Counted from the first letter of the stretch, positions 3,884 to 24,769 are shown. The stretch: DNA of 30,004 bases from a virus (IMGVR_UViG_2740892439_000007:1-30004), one strand, 5' to 3'. Numbers and translations are program-made. The notes: a model not told the origin generated them from the letters alone.

Positions 3884-3957
3884 TCTACCTTTTCTTATTT
3901 GTGAAAATAAACCAGCACTTGGTAGTGCTTATGTAACAGCAAAGAAGAGAAAAACAC

Positions 3958-4200
3958 ATGAGTAACAAAATCGAAAACCCCGTAGTTCTCATTCACAAGC
4001 GTGAGAACCCCGACTCCTATGCGGTGGCGATCACCAATGGGAGTCACGATTATTACGATGGTCTGCTAATGGCCTCAGTGTCGCCTGATGAGGCAGACAA
4101 CTCTTTTGCCGTCTTCGCTATGGTTGGTTACTACATGGCTGCCGAAATTGAGAAGTTGCGGGCGCAGAGAGACGCATTAGCGGCGGAGAATGCAGCCTGA
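3958..4200 (+). CDS. Hypothetical protein (80 aa)
   Basis: ORF with ATG and gagaaaaacac leader. Confidence 0.55.
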   Translation: MSNKIENPVVLIHKRENPDSYAVAITNGSHDYYDGLLMASVSPDEADNSFAVFAMVGYYMAAEIEKLRAQRDALAAENAA

Positions 4201-4226
4201 AAGAATCTGAGCGAGCATTCGATGCG

Positions 4227-4412
4227 ATGTGTGCCGAGGAACACGGAGATAATTGGGTTAGCGAATTAACGGAGACTCCAGCCACCGATGCTTTTCTGGC
4301 TGAAGTACGTGCGCAGGGCGTGGAGATGTTTGCTGAGTGCGCATACACACTTGAACATCATGATCACGCAGTAGCTTTTGCCGCTGAGCTTCGTACAGGA
4401 AATAAACAGTGA
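4227..4412 (+). CDS. Hypothetical protein (61 aa)
   Basis: ORF with ATG start; stop overlaps the next gene start (GTGA). Confidence 0.45.
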   Translation: MCAEEHGDNWVSELTETPATDAFLAEVRAQGVEMFAECAYTLEHHDHAVAFAAELRTGNKQ

Positions 4413-5134
4413 ATGAGATTTACTACCTGACGTTACGTGAACGTTATTCACCAAAACCAGCGCCTAAATGCTCTGTTTGTGACGAGGAAATGTCAATACA
4501 GCGCATATCTGGAGCACATGTTGTTTATGCCTGTTCCGGTGAGGGTGATGACGGATATTTTAAGATAGGGCGTACTTTTGCAGACGAACATTATGAAAAA
4601 TCACGCGTAACAGTAGTTGATGATAGTGATCCCGATGTGATTGCACTGCTGGACGAACTGGATAAAAGACAGCAACACATCCGACGTCTTGAGCAGGAGA
4701 ACGTAGAGATGGCCCTAACGCTTGAGAAACTGCGTGTTGAGCTGGAGACCGTTAAACAGCGGGAAAAGGATCTGTTTATGGAAAATGTTCGACTTAAGTC
4801 AGGTATAGCAGGTCTGATACACCTCGGTATTCGATATGCGGATGTCGAAGTCATGAAAATAGCTGGTGATGCCCAGCTTTCTACTCCCTGTACTGACAGC
4901 ATCATAAACAGTATTGCATCAGGCGTTTTCACCAAAGAGGTCAGCATTATGAGAACAGTAGAAGTTCGCGCTGAAGATGTAACCCCAGGTGATGTGGTCA
5001 TAACATCTAAAGGCAAACGATGTGCGGTTAAATCTTTCTGGATGGAAGGTGACAAAGTGACTCTGTTCGGTACGGATGGTTCCGAAACGGATTATGACTA
5101 CGACGAATTACTTGTTGTTGAGAGAGCTATCTAA
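4409..5134 (+). CDS. Hypothetical protein (241 aa) with an N-terminal Cys cluster (CSVC...C) and a predicted coiled coil
   Basis: ORF from GTG overlapping the upstream stop; sequence features only, no family recognised. Confidence 0.6.
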   Translation: MNEIYYLTLRERYSPKPAPKCSVCDEEMSIQRISGAHVVYACSGEGDDGYFKIGRTFADEHYEKSRVTVVDDSDPDVIALLDELDKRQQHIRRLEQENVEMALTLEKLRVELETVKQREKDLFMENVRLKSGIAGLIHLGIRYADVEVMKIAGDAQLSTPCTDSIINSIASGVFTKEVSIMRTVEVRAEDVTPGDVVITSKGKRCAVKSFWMEGDKVTLFGTDGSETDYDYDELLVVERAI

Positions 5135-5829
5135 TGACCACCGTTAACAATAAGAAATGCTACCCAAGCGAGCAATATCTTAATGAGCTGATCACCAACA
5201 TAGAGTTTGCTGCAAGGACACCTGTTGAAGTCGTGAGAGCGATGGCAGCAGAGCTACAGAAGCGGCGCGAAGCTGATAGTGCAGAACCTGTAAGCCAAAC
5301 TTACAAGTTGCCAGTTAATACACCTTGCCAAGATGCGCCAGCCCATATCTGGCTGCAAACGGCTGGAGTATGGCCAGAAGATAGCGAGTTAAGCGAATTA
5401 ACGTGGTGCAGCCACAATCAGCACCATGATGACACGCTATATGTTCGAGCTGACCTTGTGAATGGCAACTATCCGGATATTCCGGATAGTTCGGTGCCAG
5501 CGCCAGGAAAGGGCGTCACCGGTGAACGTATCCGCATTAAGCCGCATGTTTATCGCGAACTGGTTAACCGCCTCCACGATACAGCGATCAAGTGTGCTGG
5601 CACCCAGCAATTACGAGAAAAAATTAGCCGTGTTTTGGGCGACGTTATTACGCCAGATCATCATAAACAAGCCGAGAAAAGTGACCTGGAAAGGTGTCAC
5701 CTTGAGGCGGCATTAAATATTAAGCCGGGACATACGCTTGGCATTATCGATGCTCTGTTGGTTCATAAGATGGCCAGGGCTTTATTGCCGCTGGTGGATG
5801 CTGGCGATACAAGCGAGGGTGAAGTATGA
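5134..5829 (+). CDS. Hypothetical protein (231 aa)
   Basis: TAATG overlap with the upstream gene. Confidence 0.6.
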   Translation: MTTVNNKKCYPSEQYLNELITNIEFAARTPVEVVRAMAAELQKRREADSAEPVSQTYKLPVNTPCQDAPAHIWLQTAGVWPEDSELSELTWCSHNQHHDDTLYVRADLVNGNYPDIPDSSVPAPGKGVTGERIRIKPHVYRELVNRLHDTAIKCAGTQQLREKISRVLGDVITPDHHKQAEKSDLERCHLEAALNIKPGHTLGIIDALLVHKMARALLPLVDAGDTSEGEV

Positions 5830-6188
5830 GAGTTGCAGATCACATCAAAAACCTTGAAAGAATTATCGAAAACGGTGAACTCTTAAGAGATCAGATGAGA
5901 CGCACGGCAGAAGTCAGAGAGGCGATAATTCGCAGTCAGGCTGGTAAATTAAAGCAATTGTCAGAGATTAACACGCTATACAAGAACAGACGTAACCGGG
6001 TGGCGCTGCGGCTTCAGAAAGCACGTAATGAAATTAAATTGGTGGAGGCAAAACTGAAAAAACAGATCCAGCGTTACGATCAGCAAGATGCTTTTTATGC
6101 CGCCATCAAGGCGGTTGCTAATGAAATAGGCATCTGGAAGTTGCTGGTGGAGGAAGCAAAGACGAAGTTAAATGCCAACGAAAGCTGA
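5826..6188 (+). CDS. Hypothetical basic coiled-coil protein (120 aa)
   Basis: ATGA overlap with the upstream gene; last gene of the coupled operon. Confidence 0.6.
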   Translation: MRVADHIKNLERIIENGELLRDQMRRTAEVREAIIRSQAGKLKQLSEINTLYKNRRNRVALRLQKARNEIKLVEAKLKKQIQRYDQQDAFYAAIKAVANEIGIWKLLVEEAKTKLNANES

Positions 6189-6261
6189 ACTACAGGTGCC
6201 CACCAGCATACAGAAAATGATTGTTTCCACATCAAGGAGATTTTAATGTTTCACTGAAACA

Positions 6262-6399
6262 TTAAGTAAGCCAGTGCATAATTCCATTTTTTACTGATCT
6301 TAAAAGCAAAATCAAAACGATGATGAGGATAATAGCCAGAATCTGGCTAATAACAGGCGCATCTAAAAATGCACTCAGGAACTGAAAAAAAGCGTTCAT
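6262..6399 (-). CDS. Small hydrophobic protein candidate (45 aa, MNAFFQFLSAFLDAPVISQILAIILIIVLILLLRSVKNGIMHWLT)
   Basis: ORF below the size cutoff of the supplied track; single predicted transmembrane segment; weak RBS. Confidence 0.3.
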   Translation of the reverse strand: MNAFFQFLSAFLDAPVISQILAIILIIVLILLLRSVKNGIMHWLT

Positions 6400-6441
6400 T
6401 CAGGTGGTTCCTTGTCAAATGTAAAGGTGCACTTGCTCACG

Positions 6442-6470
6442 TTGACGTAGAAACCCAACCCCTATATAGT
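6442..6470 (+). promoter_or_regulatory. Sigma-70-like promoter candidate TTGACG-N17-TATAGT
   Basis: Near-consensus -35 and -10 with 17-bp spacer; no convincing CDS downstream; iteron-like motifs and a hairpin (6555-6580) follow. Confidence 0.35.
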
Positions 6471-6516
6471 TGGATTCGGTGAATGAAAGTCGTTAACGTG
6501 AGCTTACGGCACATGT

Positions 6517-6541
6517 TTTCGGAAAAACATCAGGGAACGGC
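6517..6541. repeat. Iteron-like motifs (ttttcggaaaaacatc aggGAACGGC) related to the arrays at 13548 and 16514
   Basis: Shares the block GAAAAACATC-GGGAA with 16606-16625. Confidence 0.4.
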
Positions 6542-6896
6542 TAATTCCTTGATGCGGGTGGGGTCTGTAATGCAGACCCTATCTATTAACGTCATGATTG
6601 CATCTCAAATTTTCTCCTTATCTTCAATTAATCTACATTCATTTCATCTGTTAGCCACCACAATATGTAGAAAATGGCCCTCTTGCAAGTGCATAGCTTT
6701 GTGGATAACTCAGGAAGGAAAAAGTGGCTTTCGCGCACTTTAGACCGGACAAGGCGTTCGAAAAAGTCAATGGGAAGAAAAAATTTGTTAAAAATAACGT
6801 TTGTTTGAATTGTATATATTTATGCCTTTCAATAGTTAGCATCTTATTAACATCTTTTTTAAGAGATAGAGTTCAAAAATATATAGCTTCAACATA

Positions 6897-7359: not shown

Positions 7360-8460
7360 TCACACTGCGCGGAATGCGATTTCGCCAGGTATTACTTCAC
7401 CTTGCCAATACATTTGGGCAGCAACGCGATCTGCGAGGTCACGATAAATAGCCGTAAATTCGCTATCTGGACGACTAATAACGGTTGGTGTTCCGTTATC
7501 CAGATCTTCACGAAGAGAGATATGAAGTGGCATTTGGCCTAACAACTGCGTGTTGTATTTCTCGGCCAGTTTCTGTGCGCCACCGGTGCCAAAAATTGGC
7601 TCGTGATGACCGCAGTTACTGCAAATATGCACACTCATGTTTTCGACGATACCCAGTACCGGCACTTCGACTTTTTCGAACATCACAATGCCTTTCTTCG
7701 CATCGATCAGCGCGATGTCTTGCGGCGTAGTTACCACAACCGCACCAGTTACAGGAATGTTCTGCGCCAGCGTCAACTGAATATCACCAGTGCCCGGCGG
7801 CATATCGAGAACGAGATAGTCCAGATCAGGCCATAGAGTTTCCTGCAACATCTGCATCAGCGCCTTGCTGGCCATCGGTCCACGCCACACCATTGCATTG
7901 TCGTCGGTGACCAGATAACCAATAGAGTTGGTTGCCAGGCCATGAGACATGATAGGTGCCATGTGAGTACCGTCAGGTGAGGTTGGACGTTGGTTTTCCG
8001 CTCCCAGCATGGTTGGAATTGATGGACCATAGATATCGGCATCCAAAATACCAACTTTCGCACCTTCAGCAGCCAACGCCAGTGCCAGGTTCACCGCCGT
8101 GGAGGATTTACCCACGCCGCCCTTGCCTGAGCTGACGGCGATAATGTTCTTAACGCCATTAATGCCTGGTTGGTTTTTGACGCGCTTAAGCGTGGCAATG
8201 TTGTACGACAGCTTCCAGTCAATAGCCTTTGCGCCAGTGATACGGAGCAGATCACCACTACATTGCTCTTTCAGGTCTTCAAAAGGCTTATTCCACACGA
8301 AAGGCATGATTAGTTCGACATGCAGTGTGTCATCCATCAACGCAACATGGTGTAACGCTTTAAGCGTAGTCAGGTTGTGTTTCAGGGTTGGGTGCTGAAA
8401 ATTAGCCAGCGTACCGGCTACCATTGCTCTCAGGGCATCCGGCGATTTGGACTCGCTCAT
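7360..8460 (-). CDS. apbC: Fe-S cluster carrier ATPase ApbC/Mrp
   Basis: 366-aa product with P-loop SSGKGGVGKS and C-terminal CxxC; near-identical to E. coli Mrp as recalled. Confidence 0.95.
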   Translation of the reverse strand: MSESKSPDALRAMVAGTLANFQHPTLKHNLTTLKALHHVALMDDTLHVELIMPFVWNKPFEDLKEQCSGDLLRITGAKAIDWKLSYNIATLKRVKNQPGINGVKNIIAVSSGKGGVGKSSTAVNLALALAAEGAKVGILDADIYGPSIPTMLGAENQRPTSPDGTHMAPIMSHGLATNSIGYLVTDDNAMVWRGPMASKALMQMLQETLWPDLDYLVLDMPPGTGDIQLTLAQNIPVTGAVVVTTPQDIALIDAKKGIVMFEKVEVPVLGIVENMSVHICSNCGHHEPIFGTGGAQKLAEKYNTQLLGQMPLHISLREDLDNGTPTVISRPDSEFTAIYRDLADRVAAQMYWQGEVIPGEIAFRAV

Positions 8461-8617
8461 CCCGTCTCCTTTATTTTAATTTGCGCAATTGTCGCCTTGT
8501 AGTGTACTCCAGCTACGACATTTAATCATTTATGAGAAATGCTGTTATCACATGGCAGACATAAGGCCATTTTGTTACTATCAAGCCCCTTTTCACTACA
8601 AAGAAGTAATGCCTACT

Positions 8618-10651
8618 ATGACCCAAGTCGCGAAGAAAATTCTGGTGACGTGCGCGCTGCCGTACGCTAACGGCTCAATCCACCTCGGCCATATGCTGGA
8701 GCACATCCAGGCTGATGTCTGGGTTCGTTACCAGCGAATGCGCGGCCACGAGGTTAATTTCATCTGTGCCGACGATGCCCACGGTACGCCGATCATGCTG
8801 AAAGCACAGCAGCTTGGTATCACACCGGAGCAGATGATTGGCGAAATGAGTCAGGAACACCAGACTGATTTCGCAGGCTTTAACATCAGCTATGACAACT
8901 ATCACTCGACGCACAGCGAAGAGAACCGTCAGTTGTCTGAGCTTATCTATACTCGCCTGAAAGAGAACGGTTTTATTAAAAACCGCACTATCTCTCAGTT
9001 GTACGACCCGGAAAAAGGCATGTTCCTGCCGGATCGTTTTGTAAAAGGCACCTGCCCGAAATGTAAAGCGCCAGATCAATACGGCGATAACTGTGAAGTC
9101 TGCGGCGCGACCTACAGCCCGACTGAACTGATTGAGCCGAAATCGGTAGTTTCTGGCGCTACGCCGGTAATGCGTGATTCTGAACACTTCTTCTTTGATC
9201 TGCCCTCTTTCAGCGAAATGTTGCAGGCATGGACCCGCAGCGGCGCGTTGCAGGAGCAGGTGGCGAACAAAATGCAGGAATGGTTTGAATCCGGCCTGCA
9301 ACAGTGGGATATCTCCCGCGATGCGCCTTACTTCGGTTTTGAAATTCCGAACGCGCCGGGCAAATATTTCTACGTCTGGCTGGACGCGCCGATTGGCTAC
9401 ATGGGTTCCTTCAAGAATCTGTGCGACAAGCGCGGCGATACCACCAGCTTCGATGAATACTGGAAGAAAGACTCCACCGCCGAGCTGTACCACTTCATCG
9501 GTAAAGATATTGTTTACTTCCACAGCCTGTTCTGGCCTGCCATGCTGGAAGGCAGCAACTTCCGCAAGCCGACCAACCTGTTTGTTCACGGCTATGTGAC
9601 GGTGAACGGCGCGAAGATGTCCAAGTCTCGCGGCACCTTTATTAAAGCCAGCACCTGGCTGAATCATTTTGACGCCGACAGCCTGCGTTACTACTACGCT
9701 GCGAAACTCTCTTCGCGCATTGATGATATCGATCTCAACCTGGAGGATTTCGTTCAGCGCGTGAATGCCGATATCGTGAACAAAGTGGTTAACCTGGCCT
9801 CCCGTAATGCAGGCTTTATCAACAAGCGTTTTGACGGCGTGCTGGCAAGCGAACTGGCTGACCCGCAACTGTACAAAACCTTTACTGATGCCGCTGAAGT
9901 GATTGGCGAAGCATGGGAAAGCCGCGAATTTGGTAAAGCTATCCGTGAAATCATGGCATTGGCTGACCTGGCTAACCGCTATGTCGATGAACAGGCTCCG
10001 TGGGTGGTGGCGAAGCAGGAAGGACGCGATGCCGATCTGCAGGCGATTTGCTCTATGGGCATTAACCTGTTCCGCGTGCTGATGACGTACCTGAAGCCGG
10101 TACTGCCGAAACTGACTGAACGTGCAGAAGCATTCCTGAATACAGAACTGACCTGGGATGGTATCCAGCAACCGCTGCTGGGCCATAAAGTGAATCCGTT
10201 CAAGGCACTGTATAACCGTATCGATATGAAGCAGGTTGAAGCACTGGTGGAAGCATCTAAAGAAGAAGTGAAAGCAGCTGCCACGCCAGTAACTGGCCCG
10301 CTGGCAGATGATCCGATTCAGGAAACCATCACCTTTGATGACTTCGCCAAAGTTGACCTGCGCGTGGCGCTGATTGAAAACGCAGAGTTTGTAGAAGGTT
10401 CTGACAAACTGCTTCGCCTGACGCTGGATCTCGGTGGTGAAAAGCGTAATGTCTTCTCAGGCATCCGTTCCGCTTATCCAGATCCACAGGCACTGATTGG
10501 TCGTCACACCATTATGGTGGCTAACCTGGCACCACGTAAAATGCGCTTCGGTATCTCTGAAGGCATGGTGATGGCTGCTGGCCCTGGCGGGAAAGATATC
10601 TTCCTGTTAAGCCCGGATGTCGGTGCTAAACCTGGCCACCAGGTTAAGTAA
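8618..10651 (+). CDS. metG: Methionine--tRNA ligase
   Basis: [25 protein letters not shown] (HIGH motif), KMSKS, C-terminal tRNA-binding domain; near-identical to E. coli MetG as recalled; the track ORF start at 8489 is an upstream alternative codon. Confidence 0.97.
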
Positions 10652-10812: not shown

Positions 10813-11112
10813 ATGTTGAACATTACCCAAGCCTACCAGGTGGCATTGATCAGTTCATCTCATACATCAGAGGAAGATGCTCGCCGATTCATGATCGCAA
10901 GCAATGAGCTGGATTGGGTTTCACAAATTGACGGCGGTTGTATTGTCCACGCCGGGTTACAGGATGATGTCTGGAAAGAGGACTTGCGTCGATATGGTAT
11001 ATCCGAAGGCGCAATTGCTAACATTCAGAAAGTACTTGATGTAGGCTTTGACTGTGTACATTTTGATTGTGGTGCGCCGATCGTTGAAGGGCTTGAGTGC
11101 TGGTGTTGGTAG
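10813..11112 (+). CDS. Hypothetical protein (about 100 aa)
   Basis: ATG at 10813 with GGAG 8 nt upstream; the track start at 10804 is an alternative codon. Confidence 0.6.
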   Translation: MLNITQAYQVALISSSHTSEEDARRFMIASNELDWVSQIDGGCIVHAGLQDDVWKEDLRRYGISEGAIANIQKVLDVGFDCVHFDCGAPIVEGLECWCW

Positions 11113-11282
11113 AGTGTATAAGCGGATCAATGAGTTACGGAAACAGTTAATAATGAGGAGCTTGTAATAAGCTGTATACCCTAGAAAAGCTAGACTAGGG
11201 AATAAAATGACGTGAAACTGGGCGGGACAGTAAATAATTCCGAATGATAATTGAACAAATAACCCCTTGCTCGGAGCTTGGA

Positions 11283-12482
11283 ATGACTGATACCGCTTTT
11301 TCAAAATCGTTACAAAAAGAAGTCGATCCTGAGCAGTACTTGGCGCTAAAGAATTTAGATGACAGCTCGGTTCATGCTATTGCCCGTGACGATATCATCT
11401 GCCCCATTTGCAAAGTTGGAGGTGGTTCGTTCGTTAGAGCCACTAGGAATGGTGGCTATCACAAGAAGGCGCATTTCAGATTTACCGGTGAAGATGGTCA
11501 AGGCCATCATCCATCATGTGATTTCTATGGAGATAGATTAACATCTGAGGTGAAGCAGCACCTTGTCTCATTCACAAAAGATCGAACAAAGTATTCGCAG
11601 GTAATACGAAAGCTGGTCTGTGCCGGCATACAGGAAGGGATATTTACTCAAGAAAAAATGTGGCAGATGAGGGAATGGTTCTTCAATAAGCGAAAGGATT
11701 CCACATTTGAAATATGGTTAGAAAGCGAGCATTTAGACTGGCTTTATTATATTAGTGGGTTACGTGATGCATATCTAGCATGGACAACTCCTGATATTCT
11801 ACCTTTCGCGCCCATTCAGGTTACTGTCCCTGGTTTTTCTTGGAGGCGTGCGATTGACAAAGAGGTGCTAAGAGTTCACATCAAGACTCTCCAGCAATTG
11901 CGTGAAATTTCAGTCTCACATAGTGACATTGCTGTAATCTTAGAACACATAAACAATAATCGTGACCGCACAATTCTCGATCCATCGCATTTGGAGGACG
12001 AGATAAGTAAGACCTATAAGCTTACTAGTTTTGTGATGGGCAATTACATTGAGTTTCAGACAAAAACGGTTAGCGACAGAGCATACGGGGAAGCTAAGTT
12101 TCTGGCATTTGCAGCACTTTTGTTGTTCGTGTCAGATTGGGACCTCAACATTGCTATTGGTAAGTTTTCTAAGATTGCCAGAGTGAAGGAGGTTGATGAC
12201 ATGCTGGCTGGTAATTTCATTGGTCTTAATCCTTACTTCCGATACGACCTGGCTAATGCAGTGAAGAGATTGCAGGATAACTGGCCGATTGAATACCAAG
12301 AGTTGGAGCATTGGAATGTTGAGAAATCCATGCGTGACGCATATGAAAAGTGGCGTGCGACAGAGCTGAATTCGCTCCACCCCTATTGCCAGACTTGTAT
12401 ATTGCCAAACATGAGAAAGAAGTCGCACAAGACGAGCAAGTCAGGCAGTGGATTAAGAACGGGGATGTTTGATTGTAATTAG
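11283..12482 (+). CDS. Hypothetical protein (about 399 aa) with an N-terminal Cys/His cluster (CPICK ... HHPSCDF)
   Basis: ATG at 11283 has GGAG 6 nt upstream, whereas the track start at 11244 has no RBS; no family recognised. Confidence 0.65.
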   Translation: MTDTAFSKSLQKEVDPEQYLALKNLDDSSVHAIARDDIICPICKVGGGSFVRATRNGGYHKKAHFRFTGEDGQGHHPSCDFYGDRLTSEVKQHLVSFTKDRTKYSQVIRKLVCAGIQEGIFTQEKMWQMREWFFNKRKDSTFEIWLESEHLDWLYYISGLRDAYLAWTTPDILPFAPIQVTVPGFSWRRAIDKEVLRVHIKTLQQLREISVSHSDIAVILEHINNNRDRTILDPSHLEDEISKTYKLTSFVMGNYIEFQTKTVSDRAYGEAKFLAFAALLLFVSDWDLNIAIGKFSKIARVKEVDDMLAGNFIGLNPYFRYDLANAVKRLQDNWPIEYQELEHWNVEKSMRDAYEKWRATELNSLHPYCQTCILPNMRKKSHKTSKSGSGLRTGMFDCN

Positions 12483-12616
12483 CTTAATCAATCAGTTGAT
12501 AATGGCGGTCACAATTTGATTCTTTTCTATAAGAACCCGTTGATCGCCACTACTCCCCTCCCATACCAGCAATCACATCATTAAATATCAATAGGTTAAC
12601 GTTGTTTATACCAATA

Positions 12617-13330
12617 AGAAAACAACTAAATAACAGATCAACGAAACATCAACGCTTTCTCCCGATTTGGTCTAAAAAATTGACGTTATCACACATCACT
12701 TCTTATACCCGTAATTCTACGCAGCAGATAGCGCCACAGCGTCCAAATTTCACCACAAACGACTCAACACACTACCAACAAAAACACACGCTCAAAATCG
12801 CTCCCGTTGCGTTACACAACCATATAAACAACTTATTTTCAGGCATAACAAAACAACTAAATAACACATATGACATTCCCCAAAACAACCAACCTCTTTA
12901 TGGCAGGCTACCGAAAAGACCCACCTCTTCTCCCCAGGCTACCGGACAACCAACCTAACTTTCACAGGCAATCCGAAAACATTCATACGCGCGATACCCA
13001 CGACACGCCATTCCCCAAACAGCGAAGAAACACCAGAATCACTGAAACCCCAACGAAGCCTGTTACCGCAAGGATTCTCTCAATCCCAAAAGACACGAAA
13101 CATAACAATCACGGGAAACGCCATTACCCAATACACGAATAACTACAAAAGCCCTTCACGCACTCCAGACAAACAACTCAAACACAATAACGAAAGCAAT
13201 CGCCCACCTGCCATTACTCCATACACGGAGAAGAACAATCACCAAAACGACGAGAACACCCCATAGAAGAACCACCGCAAAACGAACGAAACCATTTACA
13301 CCGACAGAGAGAACAACACACCCAATTCAC
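12617..13330 (+). other. About 0.7-kb noncoding tract with strong A+C strand bias (roughly 75 percent A+C on the plus strand) and internal repeats
   Basis: Hand counts on two 60-nt lines gave 75 and 77 percent A+C; track ORFs here are low-complexity P/T/N/Q/H-rich translations. Confidence 0.7.
12888..12981 (+). repeat. Three tandem ~30-bp direct repeats (CCACCTCTT...CCAGGCTACCG family)
   Basis: Units at about 12888-12920, 12921-12950, 12951-12981; same family as 15811-15900. Confidence 0.6.
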
Positions 13331-13466
13331 CAACAGAAATAGTCGCCGTATAGAACATTCTGGAAGGAGTGAGCATTAACGCCTATAGAGAGGTTGAGAC
13401 AGATAAACACGAAGAAAACACAACATGTATAGCGAAGAAGCCAGGTATGTATAAGTGGGGAGGGAA

Positions 13467-13488
13467 GGAGGGGTGTCGCCTCCTTTTT
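13467..13488 (+). terminator. Hairpin plus T5 terminator candidate at the end of the AC-rich/purine-rich noncoding tract
   Basis: ggagg ggtgtcg cctcc followed by TTTTT. Confidence 0.45.
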
Positions 13489-13547
13489 CGTATTTATTCA
13501 ACTCCTGATTTTATCCCCCGTAACACCCCTACGGTCAGCCTTCGGTC

Positions 13548-16513: not shown

Positions 16514-16629
16514 CAGGGAAATTTTCAGAAACGGCGAGGAACGTATTCATGAGCCGACGGGAAACGGCCAGGATTTTTTCGGGAAACGGCTGCATTCGCC
16601 TTTATGTAGAAAAACATCGGGAAGCTGGT
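16514..16629 (+). repeat. Second iteron array (GGGAAACGGC-type, about five units, two of them exactly 22 bp apart at 16559 and 16581)
   Basis: Same core as the 13548-13700 array. Confidence 0.6.
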
Positions 16630-16735: not shown

Positions 16736-16878
16736 AGTGGTGTGATTATGTGAAAAATCACGCGCACATAATACGCGAGCGGATACGGAACAAAACAAAA
16801 TGCCGATCCGCGCCGACAAATAAACGCGGATCATAAAGCAAGACTAAAAGCCAATGATTAACCATACTCTATAGCGCA

Positions 16879-17085
16879 ATATAACGCGTTTTAAGCGCGT
16901 TAATGTGTTAAGTAATGGGTATGTACTGGTAAGGATATAAAAGCGCGTCTATGGCGTTATTTTGGCGCTTATTTTTATGTTGTTGGAGTGAGTTAAAGAC
17001 AATAAAAAACGCGCTAATGATGGCGCGTTATGGTGGGAGTATTGGAAACGAAAAAAGCGCCCATAGTGGGCGCTCGATTTTATTT
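16879..17085. repeat. Array of four related GC-core hairpins, each preceded by an A-run (about 16879, 16936, 17002, 17057)
   Basis: Inverted repeats taacgcg/cgcgtta, aacgcgc/gcgcgtt and gcgccca/tgggcgc are exact; the second unit is imperfect; the last is followed by a T-rich tract. Confidence 0.5.
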
Positions 17086-17150
17086 GTGTAAACTGATTTT
17101 AAATCCCATTTCTACAAACGCTTTTAACATTAAAAATATATCAGCGTCGT

Positions 17151-17309
17151 TCACGTCTGCTTTTTTCGCTCCTGGTCGCTCAATAAGTCAATTTTGCGCG
17201 TCGTTTCATCTATAAGCTCGACTGAGCGCCCAGCGTAACCAGCGATCCCAGCGATGCGATTAACAAAATATTCATTGCGCACGTTAACGCCAGCGATAAG
17301 AATAAACAT
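17151..17309 (-). CDS. Small protein candidate (52 aa, hydrophobic N-terminus MFILIAGV, charged C-terminus)
   Basis: ATG with AAGGAG 7 nt upstream; bracketed by two identical hairpins (gcgcccatagtgggcgc at 17057 and 17327); the track's longer N-terminus overlaps the upstream terminator. Confidence 0.3.
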   Translation of the reverse strand: MFILIAGVNVRNEYFVNRIAGIAGYAGRSVELIDETTRKIDLLSDQERKKQT

Positions 17310-17322
17310 GATTAAGCTCCTT

Positions 17323-17343
17323 AAAAGCGCCCATAGTGGGCGC
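17323..17343 (-). terminator. Rho-independent terminator for CDS 17357-18016 (gcgccca tag tgggcgc plus T-run on the minus strand)
   Basis: Hairpin 14 nt after the stop, followed by TTTT in minus-strand sense. Confidence 0.7.
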
Positions 17344-17356
17344 AAGATTCCATTAA

Positions 17357-18016
17357 TTACGCTTTGAAAGCATCAGCCAGATAGTTATAGAAATCATTTT
17401 TAATAAAGCGATATTGCTGCGTACCAGCTTTTGCGCTTCCCATTCCTTTGACTTTCTCAACAAGTCCAAGACGTTCGCAAAGATTGATCAACTGGTTGGC
17501 TTGAGTATAGCCAGCGTCCAATTTAATTTCGCACGCTTTTTTAGCTTCATTCATTAAATCGAAAACAGCGCCATTGGTGAACGTGTCGATCTCGTCGTTA
17601 ATCATATCGATTAAAGCGAATACACGAGATCCTGACATATCAGCGACGGAATAAACACATTTACCAGCTTTAATGGATTTAACCAGATAAACCAGTTTTT
17701 CCAGTGAATAACTATTAGTCATAGCATCACGGAAAAATACTTCTGGCGCTTGTTTACTTGCTTTAATCGCATAGTAGAAAACAGAGCATAATTTTTCGTC
17801 TTCTACTGCGTTTACGACGTTGTTGATGAAGTAAGCAAGTTTAGTGGTCGCAGCTTGCATATTTGCTTTGTCTGCTTTAGTGTGCGTACCATTTTTATAA
17901 TGTTCGTTATATGTTTGAGTTGCCAGATCTGCTTTTTCGCGCAGCTCGTCGGATACAATAGATGCAGCTTCAATGATGGACTTTTTAGAAATGATAATGT
18001 TAGCCATGATGGACAT
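17357..18016 (-). CDS. Hypothetical protein (219 aa), visibly AT-rich coding sequence
   Basis: Long ORF with its own terminator; AT-richness is a visual impression, not a count. Confidence 0.7.
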   Translation of the reverse strand: MSIMANIIISKKSIIEAASIVSDELREKADLATQTYNEHYKNGTHTKADKANMQAATTKLAYFINNVVNAVEDEKLCSVFYYAIKASKQAPEVFFRDAMTNSYSLEKLVYLVKSIKAGKCVYSVADMSGSRVFALIDMINDEIDTFTNGAVFDLMNEAKKACEIKLDAGYTQANQLINLCERLGLVEKVKGMGSAKAGTQQYRFIKNDFYNYLADAFKA

Positions 18017-18303
18017 CCTTACGAAAAATTAAAATGAATTTATTTTTTACTGTCGTTAGCCAGCTCGCTTTCGACGAGTTCAATTATCGATACGTGAAAA
18101 AGGATTGCAAGTATTTTTTTTAAATTTTTTTGCAGGGGTGAAAGTCCTAGAAATAAAAGCGAGATCGTCGAAGGTGTTCCCTAAATAAATAATCAATTCG
18201 GACTTTTAACCTTATATATTTATACAGAGTGGCATTGAATGAGTTTTAAATGAATGGCATGTAAAATAATAACCGGGCTTAGCCGGTTATTACCCTTATA
18301 GAT

Positions 18304-18828
18304 TTAAAATGGAAGGATTCGTTCAACCCAATCGAAGAAAACAAGTATTTTTCTGCCGTCTTCTAACTTAAGAGTGACCTGGCAAGCATCAACGCCTCTT
18401 GACACCCCTTCAATTTCACGACCGTCTGCCATGTAGACCCTTATAGATTGGTCGTTTTGATAAGCCTTGCGACATATCGCAAAAAAGTCACGGCGTGATG
18501 GCTGATTGTCAACATAGTCTGGATGTATTGTTAGCCTACCTTTGAACTCGCGAGCAATGCCATCGATTACACCTGATTCAATTGTGCTAATGCGCTCAAG
18601 TGGGAGTCTTATACGATTTTCTTTATCATATGGAAGCGGGCATAAATCTAGCTTATTGCGGGAAGGCATTGTCCCCTGAACGTACATGCAAAACACCTGA
18701 CCGTCTTCAAGCGTGACTCTTACAGGAATGTTGTTCTTCCGCCAGAACATAAGTATGTTTTCAGCATGTTCGTAGTCTCGCGGCCAGACTTCAGCCGGTA
18801 TGCCGTAGGTGATGTCCGATGTTCTCAT
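18304..18828 (-). CDS. Tandem Rof (YaeO)-like domain protein (174 aa)
   Basis: Two internal repeats each resembling E. coli Rof as recalled (DY...LEDG ... ExRxRLxxIS/T): VRVTLEDGQVF...ENRIRLPLERISTI and IRVYMADGREI...VTLKLEDGRKILVFFDWVERI. Confidence 0.55.
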   Translation of the reverse strand: MRTSDITYGIPAEVWPRDYEHAENILMFWRKNNIPVRVTLEDGQVFCMYVQGTMPSRNKLDLCPLPYDKENRIRLPLERISTIESGVIDGIAREFKGRLTIHPDYVDNQPSRRDFFAICRKAYQNDQSIRVYMADGREIEGVSRGVDACQVTLKLEDGRKILVFFDWVERILPF

Positions 18829-19418
18829 TCTGATACTCTTAGAGGTGTTTTCAGCAACCCAAATTTAAATTCTTTGTTACCAACGACAAAGAAGGGAACC
18901 TCAACATAGATTTTTTTATCGACGGATTTAGAGTTCGCTGTTTTCTGTATGTCACGAACGATACGTTTTGAGGCATTTTCATCGATAAACAATACCTTTC
19001 CACTTGTATTCCCTTCAGCCTTGGCGTAAGTAACGATAGGCTCTTCATCGCCAACCCTAATGTTTACTTGGCAACCTGTTGTAGCCATTTCATCACAGTA
19101 AAGTGTGCCGTCTTGAACTTCCAAAACAATTCCAGATGGCTTCATGGCTTCGTCAGAGCTTACATTAACGTTTTCTGGTACAGCGGTCCCGTTAATTTGC
19201 AACCGTAATCTTTCTTTTCCTGCATTAAGTATTGTTTCTTCTGCGTTATCTGAGAATCTGAACCAGACTGGTTGAATCAGACCTCGTGATTCGTATTTTA
19301 GTACGTCTTCAGAAGTATACATGCTGTACGTTTTTTGCATGTCGGAGACGATATCTGACAACGCATTTGCGGAAAATGACGAGAGGTATATACAAGCAAG
19401 AAGTAACGAACGTTTCAT
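18825..19418 (-). CDS. Secreted or periplasmic protein with N-terminal signal peptide (197 aa)
   Basis: MKRSLLLACIYLSSFSANA-LSD has a classic n-h-c signal peptide with AxA site; 4-bp ATGA overlap with the downstream Rof-like gene. Confidence 0.7.
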   Translation of the reverse strand: MKRSLLLACIYLSSFSANALSDIVSDMQKTYSMYTSEDVLKYESRGLIQPVWFRFSDNAEETILNAGKERLRLQINGTAVPENVNVSSDEAMKPSGIVLEVQDGTLYCDEMATTGCQVNIRVGDEEPIVTYAKAEGNTSGKVLFIDENASKRIVRDIQKTANSKSVDKKIYVEVPFFVVGNKEFKFGLLKTPLRVSE

Positions 19419-19510
19419 TTTTATACAGCGATTATTGCAAAGTAGAATTATAAATATCCAATAGTCTCAAACGATAAGTTTTCAACTGTAAATAGCAGAC
19501 GTGTTTCTCT

Positions 19511-19543
19511 AAAAGCTGTGCGGCAAAGGCGTTGTTGCCGCAC
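19511..19543 (-). terminator. Rho-independent terminator for CDS 19599-19877 (gtgcggcaa ... ttgccgcac plus T-run on the minus strand)
   Basis: 9-bp stem; AAAA on the plus strand at 19511-19514 gives TTTT after the hairpin in minus-strand sense. Confidence 0.7.
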
Positions 19544-19598
19544 TCTGTCTATTAGCTCTTCAAGTCTGGCAATTCTGAAATTGACTAAGAATCCAATA

Positions 19599-19877
19599 TT
19601 ACGGCAGTTTGCTTAGAATTTGCTCTAAATCTTCCTTTGTCATATTAGAGTTCTCATAGATGCGCATGATTTTCTCACGAGCCTTAGCAGAGACTCCAAC
19701 GGCAGATGAAACTTTGTCAAATTCAGCCATTGTCATCGCTTCCAGAATGGTATTGATAACTTCAGCCTTAGACATTTTGATGTTTTTTTCTTTTAGTTTC
19801 ATTTGAAACTTTCCAAGTTTGTCATTGGCCTTATCGGACAATGCCACCTGACAATAAGTTGTTTTCTTTTCGCTCAT
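19599..19877 (-). CDS. Hypothetical small protein (92 aa)
   Basis: Only 2 nt separate its start from the helicase stop codon. Confidence 0.6.
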   Translation of the reverse strand: MSEKKTTYCQVALSDKANDKLGKFQMKLKEKNIKMSKAEVINTILEAMTMAEFDKVSSAVGVSAKAREKIMRIYENSNMTKEDLEQILSKLP

Positions 19878-19879
19878 AA

Positions 19880-21438
19880 CTAATCTCGTTTCAGAACTCC
19901 AAAATCGAATGCGCCATCAATAGGCAATACACCTTCTGCAAAGCCAGGTGTGGTGTCGATGATGTGTTTTCGCTCATAAGAGTGAGACAACAGGTATTTG
20001 TTGCTAATGTCAATGAAATCAGTGATAAAACACACGTTTGCCTGATTCTTCTTGGCTCGTAAGCCACGACCGACACGCTGCCTCATTTCAACTTCTGCTT
20101 TCCCACCACCAGCCAGAATGACCGCACCAACGCTTGGCACATCAACACCGACATCCAGAATAGTCGAGCCTATTAAAACATCTATTTCGCCAGACGCTAA
20201 ACTGTTCAGCTTTGCTTGCCTTGTCGCCTGGTTTGATTCCCCATAGATGAAGTCAACTCTAAGGCCGGACTCCTTCATCATCTCCATCAGGATTTGCCCG
20301 TGGCGTTTAAGACGAACCAGAGTCATGCAATTGAGAGAATGTTGCTTATAGAGCAATGCTTCGCGCACAATGGCCTCGTTACGTCCCAAATTATACACGA
20401 TCCCCAACTGATAAGCCTTTTGGTAGGCTGTGCTCATACCTACTCTAAAATTGAGGTGTTTGTTGGCAAGTTCGGCTTGATTCTGGCCTCGTCTGGCTTG
20501 TAGGCAACTTTATGATAAAGGAAGTATGGTTTTGCCAGAATGCCTCTATCAATCAGGTACTTTTCCGTGACTTTTATTTCAATTCGCCCGGCCACTGCCA
20601 TCAGGCGCATGTTGGCTTCCGTCGAATCCTTCATGAACGGCGTGGCTGTAAGCGCCAGACGATAGTCTGCGTTCACACATAATCTGGCGATGTCATAGAA
20701 ATTAGAGCCTGAAGACTCATGCGCCTCTTCCAGAATAAGAAGAGAGACACTTGAAAGGAAGCGTTTCACCAACTCCCGACGTTTGAGGTGGTAGCTTTTC
20801 TTATCTGGTGTTGCATCGCGTGGTGGTTCTTCGAGGAAACTTGCAAGAGTTTGAACTGTAGCGACGTTGATATGTCGTGATACCTGGAACTCACCCGAGC
20901 CAATTACTCCAACCTTTTGGTCCTTTAACCACGGTTCGCCATTTTCGGCGCGGTAGTCGATGGATCTCTGGAAGTTTTCGGCCATTTGAAACATCAGAAC
21001 AGAGCGGGTTGTTAAAAATAATGTCATTCGACCGATACGTGCAGCTGCTTTGCAGGCAACGTTAGATTTCCCGCCACCAGTAGCGATCTGCGCAATCATC
21101 ATTCCCTCTCGAACCAGTGTTTCTACTGTCTGATCTTGGTACGCATAATCAGGGTTGTATGGAAATGGGTTAACCGCCGGATTTGGTTTACCCAGCGCCG
21201 GGGCTTTGTCTTTGCGGATATGAACACATTTGATGCCCGCCTTGTTCAAATTAGCCGCCACGGGCTTGGCAAAGCCAGCAGGGAACGAGTTTTTGCTCCA
21301 GTTGAACATTGTGCTTGTGCCCTTCCAGTCGCCAGCCTCGACTTCGTAGCTCAACATTTGCTGCACCAGTTGCTTTACCTTGTCATCTGCGCCAGAAATA
21401 AGCGCATTTACTGCGTTAGATACAATCCGAACAGTCAT
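19880..21438 (-). pseudogene. SF2 DExH-type helicase interrupted by a -1 frameshift (N-terminal part 20440-21438, C-terminal part 19880-20437)
   Basis: Motifs I (ATGGGKS), II (LILEEAHE) and III (LTATP) lie in the upstream ORF and motif VI (QRVGRGLR) in the downstream ORF; the frames change at a T4 run (plus-strand AAAA near 20447). Confidence 0.75.
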
Positions 21439-24720: not shown

Positions 24721-24769
24721 GCTTCTGTATATATAAATAATAAGTAACTTATTAAATATATACGGAAGC
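24721..24769. promoter_or_regulatory. 49-bp AT-rich imperfect palindrome (gcttctgtatatat ... atatatacggaagc)
   Basis: 14-bp outer arms with one mismatch and an inner dyad (aataagt a acttatt). Confidence 0.5.

Follow-up and report, generated by a model that had tools for sequence, protein, structure and literature searches.

A probably ancestral AT-rich block with a flagellin-repressor homologue in an SSU5-type phage-plasmid of Escherichia coli

The described systems closest to the locus considered here are the phage-plasmids of the SSU5 supergroup (SSU5, pHCM2, pLF82/Cyrano, pKpn, and pMT1), the slots for morons and conversion genes in prophages (for example, those of the superinfection-exclusion lipoproteins Cor and Llp), and the flagellin repressors of the FljA type, represented by FljA of Salmonella fljBA and by fljA/flkB of Escherichia coli and of the linear plasmid pBSSB1. 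FljA-type proteins prevent the translation of fliC mRNA through its 5' leader (PMC2652032 and the work cited there). A homologue of FljA is encoded by the stretch of viral DNA analysed here, which is 30,004 nucleotides (nt) long (IMGVR_UViG_2740892439_000007:1-30004; hereafter the window), within a minus-strand block at 17357-19877 (2521 nt) that is rich in adenine and thymine (AT-rich). A first-pass annotation had regarded this block as recently acquired cargo inside a prophage. Rather, with a probability of about 0.72, it is an accessory and regulatory region, conserved and AT-rich by ancestry, of an SSU5/pHCM2/pLF82-type phage-plasmid, made up of three minus-strand units, and nothing in it is outside the known kinds of system. 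SSU5-type phage-plasmids are common in clinical Enterobacteriaceae, and what they bring along in this block is a flagellin-repressor homologue that has no flagellin gene nearby and is expressed when the element is carried.

The membership of the window in this family is seen from its relatives. The region 16800-20500, searched against complete E. coli genomes and phages, matched 245 complete E. coli genomes in 267 places, all of them plasmids of ~100-128 kb, with pEC881_2 as the best match (98.3%) and no chromosomal match among the 267 E. coli places. The phage matches were Escherichia CMS-2020a and Cyrano (pLF82), Salmonella SSU5, and Klebsiella phage-plasmids; the block is 93-96% identical to those of Cyrano and CMS-2020a and ~78-81% identical to those of SSU5 and the Klebsiella elements. 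The window is collinear with pEC881_2 across 1187-29974 (91-99% per aligned block), a region with early genes, then helicase and parB, and then terminase, portal, and capsid. Since it is collinear with known members and all matches lie on plasmids and none in a chromosome, the window is, on this comparison, an SSU5/pHCM2/pLF82-type phage-plasmid of E. coli and not an integrated prophage, the plasmid state being that of the relatives' replicons, as its own replicon lies beyond the 30 kb. Hence the placement of the block inside a prophage does not hold, its relatives being extrachromosomal plasmids in 267 of 267 places. Likewise, there is no ‘host sequence’ around the block, as the neighbouring apbC and metG are plasmid-borne paralogues. 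The window differs from the described supergroup members in its early region, which diverges from pEC881_2 (3910-6887 and 11111-12485), and in single-base deletions that break the frames of helicase, ABC ATPase, terminase, and portal.

The earlier impression that the block is more AT-rich than its surroundings is borne out by counting. The guanine plus cytosine (GC) content is 39.35% in 17357-19877 against 47.14% in the remaining window (46.5% overall), and the block is the minimum among all segments of 2521 nt (mean 46.4%, standard deviation 2.6%); 0.3% of these segments are equally low, every one of them overlapping the block, and the sliding GC profile shows a trough of 35-43% at ~17250-20000. 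The 31 genes outside the block have a GC of 47.7 +/- 3.0% and a GC at third codon positions (GC3) of 50.2 +/- 6.1%. Against these, p216 (17357-18007, minus strand; GC 38.6%, z -3.0, GC3 35.9%), p197 (18825-19418, minus strand; GC 40.1%, z -2.5, GC3 35.9%), and p92 (19599-19877, minus strand; GC 37.6%, z -3.3, GC3 41.9%) have the three lowest GC values of the window's 35 genes; the FljA-like gene (18304-18828, minus strand; GC 45.0%, z -0.9, GC3 42.9%) is only mildly below the window genes. The block genes differ from the outside genes in both GC and GC3 (Mann-Whitney, p = 5e-4 and 8e-5, respectively), and the two intergenic regions of the block have 33% and 36% GC. As GC3 is also low, the bias is present at synonymous sites too, beyond amino-acid content. 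The block thus has a composition unlike the surrounding element, as foreign cargo would.

However, composition alone misled the earlier annotation, since the comparison with relatives shows that the AT-richness is ancient and maintained. The order small gene, p216, FljA-like gene, slot, p92, helicase is common to the eight relatives examined, namely pMTY12368, Cyrano, SSU5, pEC881_2, PhiR41_1, Klebsiella pJN2-26, D9 plasmid A, and the Esc24 plasmid. The block is lower in GC than its flanks in all four relatives measured: SSU5 (44.2% against 51.4%), pJN2-26 (43.1% against 49.8%), Cyrano (38.2% against 46.2%), and PhiR41_1 (37.8% against 45.0%). When the E. coli type is compared with SSU5 or pJN2-26, the synonymous divergence (dS) of p216 is 1.0-1.35, with a ratio of non-synonymous to synonymous divergence (dN/dS) of 0.06-0.10, and that of the FljA-like gene is 1.4-1.5 with a dN/dS of ~0.10 (up to 0.11). 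The synonymous divergence of the block genes, at ~1 or more, is partly saturated; in the same comparison the backbone gene parB has a dS of 1.4-1.9. Because the values of p216 and the FljA-like gene resemble that of parB, the block genes have diverged together with the backbone. The distribution is equally broad. For example, 237 of ~245 E. coli relatives have p216 together with the intergenic region upstream of it, and the FljA-like protein is encoded by 831 plasmids in PLSDB. The genes p216, FljA-like, and p92 are syntenic in every relative examined, so that the absence from close relatives that is expected of cargo is not seen. With synteny and AT-richness kept across Escherichia, Salmonella, and Klebsiella relatives and a dS like that of the backbone, the block is ancestral, and the claim that it was recently acquired as a whole has to be given up. 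Likewise, the GC3 of p216 stays at 36-42% in three lineages, its neighbouring genes being at 45-67%, and such steadiness speaks for a maintained constraint and not a fading donor signature. These comparisons argue for AT-richness that is maintained, most clearly in p216, rather than being the trace of a recent import. Silencing of the H-NS type is a reasonable idea for the cause and may be taken as a candidate: p216 and the 33% GC region upstream of it are AT-rich, and the Cyrano homologue is silent in lysogens, features that would fit H-NS-silenced DNA.

The block has the early genes on one side and the helicase-parB module on the other, and its genes would fall into three units, each with a terminal hairpin. 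The first unit would be p92 as the tail of the helicase operon, its homologue being expressed in the plasmid (lysogenic) state; the second, the two-gene operon of p197 and the FljA-like gene, in which the p197 slot would exchange envelope-protein cargo; and the third, p216 with a small gene behind a conserved promoter/operator region, the p216 homologue being silent in lysogens. Of the two genes recognised earlier, the first is real but its start is moved, and the second, given as 18304-19418, is not a single gene. The start of p216 is most likely 18007 and not 18016, since an AAGGA Shine-Dalgarno sequence precedes that ATG and the relatives are annotated with 216 aa. The stretch 18304-19418 comprises two genes with an ATGA overlap at 18825-18828, by which p197 and the FljA-like gene are, from their arrangement, translationally coupled.

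The hairpins, terminators, and promoters are taken from computational scans. Both hairpins that had been named as the block's own terminators exist and are stable, but they have U4 tails only and neither is called on the minus strand. The first of them (17327-17343; -13.2 kcal/mol, z = -1.8, U4 tail) follows the p216 stop codon on the minus strand and directly precedes the AAGGAG and ATG of the co-oriented small gene. The real bidirectional terminator is its twin at 17055-17075 (-15.5 kcal/mol, U6 tail, z = -3.9), which the scan calls on both strands and which closes the minus-strand block; the two belong to a 32-nt direct repeat that is 88% identical (repeat family D2). The second (19518-19543; minus strand, -16.0 kcal/mol, z = -3.7, minus-strand tail AGCUUUUAG) lies after p92, at the end of the helicase-p92 unit, and is called on the plus strand only. 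A further minus-strand terminator hairpin was missing from the first-pass annotation. It stands 3' of the FljA-like stop codon (18263-18296; -15.5 kcal/mol, z = -3.6, followed by UUUU), is invariant in the seven-element alignment and kept in all relatives, and divides the block by separating the FljA-like gene from p216.

The region upstream of p216 measures 296 nt with 33% GC and contains invariant motifs, a promoter, and a 75-nt leader, all on the minus strand. The sigma-70-like promoter of p216 found in the promoter scan (18083-18110; TTGCAA, 16 nt, GATAAT) has a -10 element that is invariant across genera in the seven-element alignment. The conserved upstream island (18111-18262) includes the motifs ATTTATTTAGGGAACACCTTCGA (18168-18190), TAAATATATAAGG (18209-18221), and TTATTTCTAGGA, which are invariant across E. 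coli, Salmonella, and Klebsiella elements and are probably operator sites, on the strength of this conservation. The p216 mRNA leader (18008-18082) has a 5' hairpin at ~18052-18075, an A/U-rich stretch, and the AAGGA Shine-Dalgarno sequence. The operon of p197 and the FljA-like gene is preceded by a promoter-like site (19431-19460, minus strand; TGGATA, 18 nt, TG-AATAAT) that comes from the promoter scan only; in the block region such sites number 6 against 10.2 expected from shuffled sequence. The sequence AAATNTATAAGG, with one mismatch allowed, occurs five times in the window against 0.53 expected, four times on the minus strand inside the block (18210-18221, 18294-18305, 18439-18450, and 19766-19777) and once on the plus strand (24754-24765). 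Two exact copies are invariant across genera, and the sequence may be a putative operator of some regulator.

The cargo character claimed for the block does apply to one place in it, the slot between the FljA-like gene and p92. Here p197 is carried by 81 of the 245 E. coli relatives (the window and 80 other E. coli plasmids) and is replaced elsewhere: by a plus-strand lipoprotein and a 199-aa protein in Cyrano, by four genes in PhiR41_1, and by one lipoprotein in SSU5 and pJN2-26. The alternatives to p197 stand on either strand, and of the ten cargo products seven carry a lipobox or signal peptide. In this respect the slot resembles the conversion slots of prophages, as it swaps AT-rich genes between relatives, its genes, most of which encode lipoproteins or proteins with a signal peptide, have promoter-like sites and hairpins of their own, and the Cyrano slot lipoprotein is expressed in lysogens. 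It differs from them in that the slot genes have no homology to Cor, Llp, or any defence model, and that the genes flanking the slot are core and not cargo. The p197 protein belongs to phrog_18942 (E 3e-117) and has no Pfam match. It is predicted to be exported, with cleavage after ANA and before L near residue 19-20; a lipoprotein was considered, but the LLAC motif is only 8 residues from the N-terminus and a Sec signal peptide cut after ANA is likelier. There are 15 homologues of p197, whose complete contigs are phage-plasmid-sized in most cases, the others being fragments, and those from Salmonella and Klebsiella phage-plasmid-sized contigs are 47-64% identical. Because such homologues exist there, p197 circulates within the phage-plasmid family and is no fresh arrival from outside. 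It occurs with both FljA-like alleles of E. coli, and both alleles also occur without it. A very recent transfer, suggested by 99.5% identity of p197 on plasmids whose p216 region is 92% identical, was rejected, as the divergent leader lowers that score and the backbone is 97-100% identical.

The expression of the block genes can be followed in Cyrano, carried by E. coli LF82, with the S1 table of PMC9928086 (values as log2(FPKM+5), FPKM being fragments per kilobase per million). The FljA-like homologue CYRAN_114 stands at 4.2 in overnight lysogeny broth (LB) and at 7-8 in fresh medium and macrophages, and is ~15-fold higher inside macrophages than in overnight LB (PMC9928086). Likewise, the p92 homologue CYRAN_117 rises from 6.3-7.2 in overnight LB to 8.6-9.9 in later conditions and is listed as a moron, 12-fold over background in lysogens, and the slot lipoprotein CYRAN_115 rises from ~5 to as much as 9.4 (PMC9928086). 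The p216 homologue CYRAN_113 is at the floor (2.3-2.8) in overnight LB and reaches 5.6 only at 6 h in macrophages, a late rise that coincides with that of the capsid genes; the small-gene homologue CYRAN_112 is likewise at the floor (2.3) and reaches 4.4-4.9 in macrophages (PMC9928086). As the homologues differ in expression in this manner, the block mixes genes of the carried state with genes of the lytic programme.

The FljA-like protein (174 aa) is matched at full length by its family. The PF03614 (Flag1_repress) match scores 270.9 bits against a cut-off of 24 bits (E 5.4e-81), with residues 5-171 on positions 1-170 of the 170-position model, and the match to phrog_1444 has an E value of 2e-98. 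Over 171 aa it has 35% identity (E 6e-32) with the ‘phase-1 flagellin repressor’ on the Salmonella linear plasmid p11-5006.1, where fljA sits immediately downstream of the flagellin gene. With the FljA proteins named above it shares, besides the full-length family match at 174 aa, the motifs DI(T/S)YG..AE.WPR(D/E)Y, P(S/T)R(R/K)DFF.IC, and DWV.RI and its location on a mobile element, and by analogy it is expected to act post-transcriptionally on an mRNA leader. The differences are that the phage-plasmid protein is only 35% identical, that its gene is not downstream of a flagellin gene and is coupled to an exported protein or stands alone, and that it is a core gene, present also in non-flagellate Klebsiella and Y. 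pestis. In the window its upstream operon partner is p197 and not an alternative flagellin (fljB, flkA, flnA), and a tblastn search of the window and 84 related loci (together 808 kb) with a flagellin as query came back empty. In SSU5 the homologue SSU5_121 (6350-6796 of locus L003) is annotated with 148 aa from an internal Met, so that the N-terminal DITYGIPAEVWPRDY of other family members is left out.

The AlphaFold2 model of the FljA-like protein (predicted local distance difference test, pLDDT, 79; predicted template modelling score, pTM, 0.78) has two repeats of a helix and five strands. The two tandem domains show the arrangement of the Hfq/Sm fold, in which a bent sheet of five strands comes after an N-terminal helix. 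The protein would differ from Hfq in having two Sm-like domains per chain, Hfq being a 60-70-residue monomer that forms a hexamer. The searchable literature holds no description of an Sm-like fold for FljA. From the family homology and the tandem Hfq/Sm-like model, RNA binding can be supposed, and the protein is most likely an RNA-binding translational repressor. It would bind an mRNA 5' leader and block translation, as Salmonella FljA does with fliC mRNA, and in motile hosts the target would probably be the host flagellin message.

Several points weigh against the reading of the block as a conserved regulatory region with such a repressor. The repressor function is drawn from homology and a predicted fold only, and sequence similarity to Hfq (PF17209) and LSM (PF01423) stays under the Pfam thresholds (18.9 and 14.5 bits against cut-offs of 27 and 23.4, residues 123-165); an alignment of FljA against one Hfq sequence (hhalign) gave a probability of 1.7%, which is not significant. 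The searchable literature contains no experiment on a phage-plasmid FljA-like protein. The E. coli K-12 fliC promoter and leader, compared with the window and with pEC881_2, gave a best match of 13 nt (E 0.12), which is at chance level; having no counterpart of the fliC leader, the window gives no pointer to a specific target. The searches assigned no function to p197 and p92, and the p216 model has no informative structural relative. The expression values are those of Cyrano, which is without p197. Similarly, the splitting into units is a prediction, because both hairpins noted earlier have short minus-strand U tracts and are not called on that strand.

It is possible, if doubtful, that the FljA-like gene is purely a lysogenic-conversion gene, shutting off host flagellin translation and making its carriers non-motile, with no role in self-regulation of the element. 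The benefit could be protection from flagellum-dependent phages, avoidance of TLR5, or energy saving. The full-length family match, the homology to a flagellin-linked fljA, the block of fliC translation by FljA proteins, and the expression of the Cyrano homologue in the plasmid state with its rise in macrophages all agree with such a role. Most of the carrier genera (Escherichia, Salmonella, Enterobacter, Citrobacter, and Cronobacter) are flagellated. However, Klebsiella and Yersinia pestis are non-motile, and the 831 carrier plasmids include 341 from Klebsiella and 62 from Yersinia (pMT1-type), so that the gene is not confined to flagellated hosts. In those hosts it is full-length (of all 831 copies, 822 span 80% of the protein or more), and between two Klebsiella copies there are 10 synonymous changes and a single non-synonymous one, by which count the gene is intact and under purifying selection in non-flagellate Klebsiella. 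Since it is kept full-length and selected there, repression of host flagellin is not its sole selected function. The low identity of 35% to the flagellin-linked FljA also speaks against conversion as the only role, and the searchable literature has no paper tying FljA to phage-plasmids, SSU5, or pHCM2, or phage-plasmids to motility. For the FljA-like protein as a repressor within a conserved regulatory region, the retention in Klebsiella would point to a further or alternative target. If the protein does silence host flagellin, carriage of the element would alter motility, H-antigen expression, and innate immune recognition.

Rather unlikely is a second proposal, in which the FljA-like protein and the p216 leader are a matched, allele-specific pair of repressor and target that resembles an immunity system and keeps p216 off in the plasmid state. 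It arises from the two E. coli alleles, A and B. In D9 plasmid A, the Esc24 plasmid, and PhiR41_1 the identity to the window falls to 65-87% over 17900-18700, the backbone being 97-100% identical. Alleles A and B diverge exactly between the start codons of p216 and of the FljA-like gene; the most divergent parts are the leader (30-40%) and the FljA-like coding sequence (up to 44%), the motif island separating these two is more conserved, and the p216 coding sequence is nearly identical in both alleles. By means of the invariant 23-nt motif, 76 more related loci were recovered and 44 complete modules extracted. FljA-like clusters pair near one-to-one with leader clusters in 42 of the 44 modules, and p216 clusters occur with several different leaders. 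When p216 and the island are held constant in a partial Mantel test, the FljA-like gene and the leader correlate at r = 0.63 (p = 5e-4), a p-value in which related sequences overstate independence; for the leader and p216, r is -0.03. The 5' hairpin of the leader has a consensus of 7 pairs, 2 of them with compensatory changes, and the p216 homologue has near-zero mRNA in lysogens that express the FljA-like homologue. The dN/dS between the two E. coli FljA-like alleles (18304-18828 and 4506-5027 of locus L007) is 0.29 against ~0.1 in other pairs, a hint that the protein changes faster between alleles found in the same host. On the other side, the pairing is equally expected from linkage, since crossovers are only possible in the conserved flanks, here the p216 coding sequence and the 5' end of the FljA-like gene, and physical linkage explains much of it. 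Moreover, the pairing fails in 3 of the 44 modules, the conserved island is exchanged together with the two partners that it separates, the hairpin is weak (-4.4 kcal/mol), and the leader is unlike that of fliC.

A more far-reaching version of this idea is less likely again. The FljA family would be at root a phage-plasmid regulator with the p216 leader as its cognate target, protein and leader forming one specificity module of a post-transcriptional, immunity-like switch, and the Salmonella flagellin repressor would be a domesticated offshoot, or flagellin repression a second, host-directed activity. In any case, the retention in Klebsiella, together with alleles that travel with the p216 leader, offers a handle on what Sm-fold proteins of the FljA type recognise. 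The block is part of a well-sampled family, and public records already contain near-identical copies, which carry the annotation ‘transcriptional regulator’ or ‘repressor of phase-1 flagellin’.

The suggestion that the AT-richness is without biological meaning, a matter of amino-acid composition or drift in a few short genes, is improbable. It draws on the low GC at first and second codon positions in p216 and p92 (rich in Lys, Asn, and Ile), on there being four genes only, and on the FljA-like gene lying within 1 standard deviation of the window mean; but the third-position bias is equally strong (GC3 36% against 50%), p216 keeps its low GC3 in three lineages despite a dS of at least 1, and the block is the minimum of the window. 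Least credible of all is the whole block as recently acquired foreign cargo (morons) in a prophage with the AT-richness as a donor signature, for which the low GC, the hairpins at both ends, the variable slot with its exported proteins, and the p92 homologue among the lysogeny-expressed morons of Cyrano can be adduced, and which, given the syntenic and AT-rich block in Salmonella, Klebsiella, and E. coli relatives, the backbone-like saturated dS under strong purifying selection, the wide occurrence of p216 and the FljA-like gene, the lack of chromosomal copies of an element that is a plasmid, and a p216 homologue that is silent in lysogens, unlike a moron, is largely refuted for p216, the FljA-like gene, and p92.

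No Pfam or NCBIfam family matches the p216 protein, which is 83-87% identical between genera and forms a family of 24 representative clusters among 1.84 billion proteins; in these searches it is found almost only in the SSU5-type family. In its model (pLDDT 84) the N-terminal part is a long helical bundle and the C-terminal part a winged-helix-like domain, and the protein is predicted to bind DNA. The p92 gene starts 2 nt past the stop codon of the helicase (19880-21438, minus strand), which lies upstream of it in the same operon. The protein (phrog_1466, E 1e-45) is 54-61% identical in amino acids to its SSU5 and pJN2-26 homologues, has just weak repressor-like matches in profile searches, and is possibly a small DNA-binding regulator of a putative ribbon-helix-helix type. 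Searches of the PDB sequences with p197, p92, and the FljA profile found nothing informative, and block proteins had no NCBIfam matches; likewise, none had a match among the PADLOC defence models.

The small gene downstream of p216 (17151-17309, minus strand; phrog_1585, PHROG E 6.5e-23) is shortened by a 1-nt deletion at 17160 to 52 aa; its counterpart in pEC881_2 has 76 aa. The SSU5 annotation of this gene as a ‘CorA metal transporter’ finds no support in profile searches. It is bracketed by the 32-nt direct repeat (17053-17084 and 17323-17354) with the same GCGCCCATAGTGGGCGC hairpin. Relatives have one or two small genes there (231 nt, 204 nt, or both), and the variable number suggests that genes are gained and lost here when the hairpin repeats recombine.

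Relative to pEC881_2, the window lacks single bases at 20476, 23107, 25910, and 27992, and also at 16609 and 17160, each time in a short run of 2-7 identical bases. By these deletions helicase, ABC ATPase, large terminase, and portal are each split into two open reading frames (ORFs), and the small gene at 17151 is shortened. Four broken essential genes within 8 kb look more like sequencing or assembly error than decay, a defective element being possible as well.

The pair apbC (mrp) and metG at 7360-10651 is plasmid-borne. Copies that are at least 95% identical are on plasmids (223 plasmid places in all), and the chromosomal copies, among all 5426 E. coli genomes, are ~90% identical; metG here is, on these identities, a diverged second methionyl-tRNA synthetase carried by the phage-plasmid. 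A 412-aa ORF at 11244-12482 lies within the segment 11111-12485 that is missing from pEC881_2, and its single PADLOC match is at chance level.

An A+C-rich tract of ~750 nt runs on the plus strand within 12600-13400 (40% A, 32% C, 12% G, 16% T). Neither a convincing ORF nor tandem repeats nor an Rfam match was found in it, and the search of the whole window with Rfam gathering thresholds and for tRNAs gave no matches. A GGAGG..CCTCC hairpin with a T5 run follows the tract at ~13455-13490. It is a conserved feature, pEC881_2, PhiR41_1, and Klebsiella pJN2-26 each having the tract without annotation and SSU5 a weaker form; the tract might be a putative C-rich, G-poor untranslated RNA, serving as a Rho-loading region or as an A-rich decoy of an Sm-type protein.

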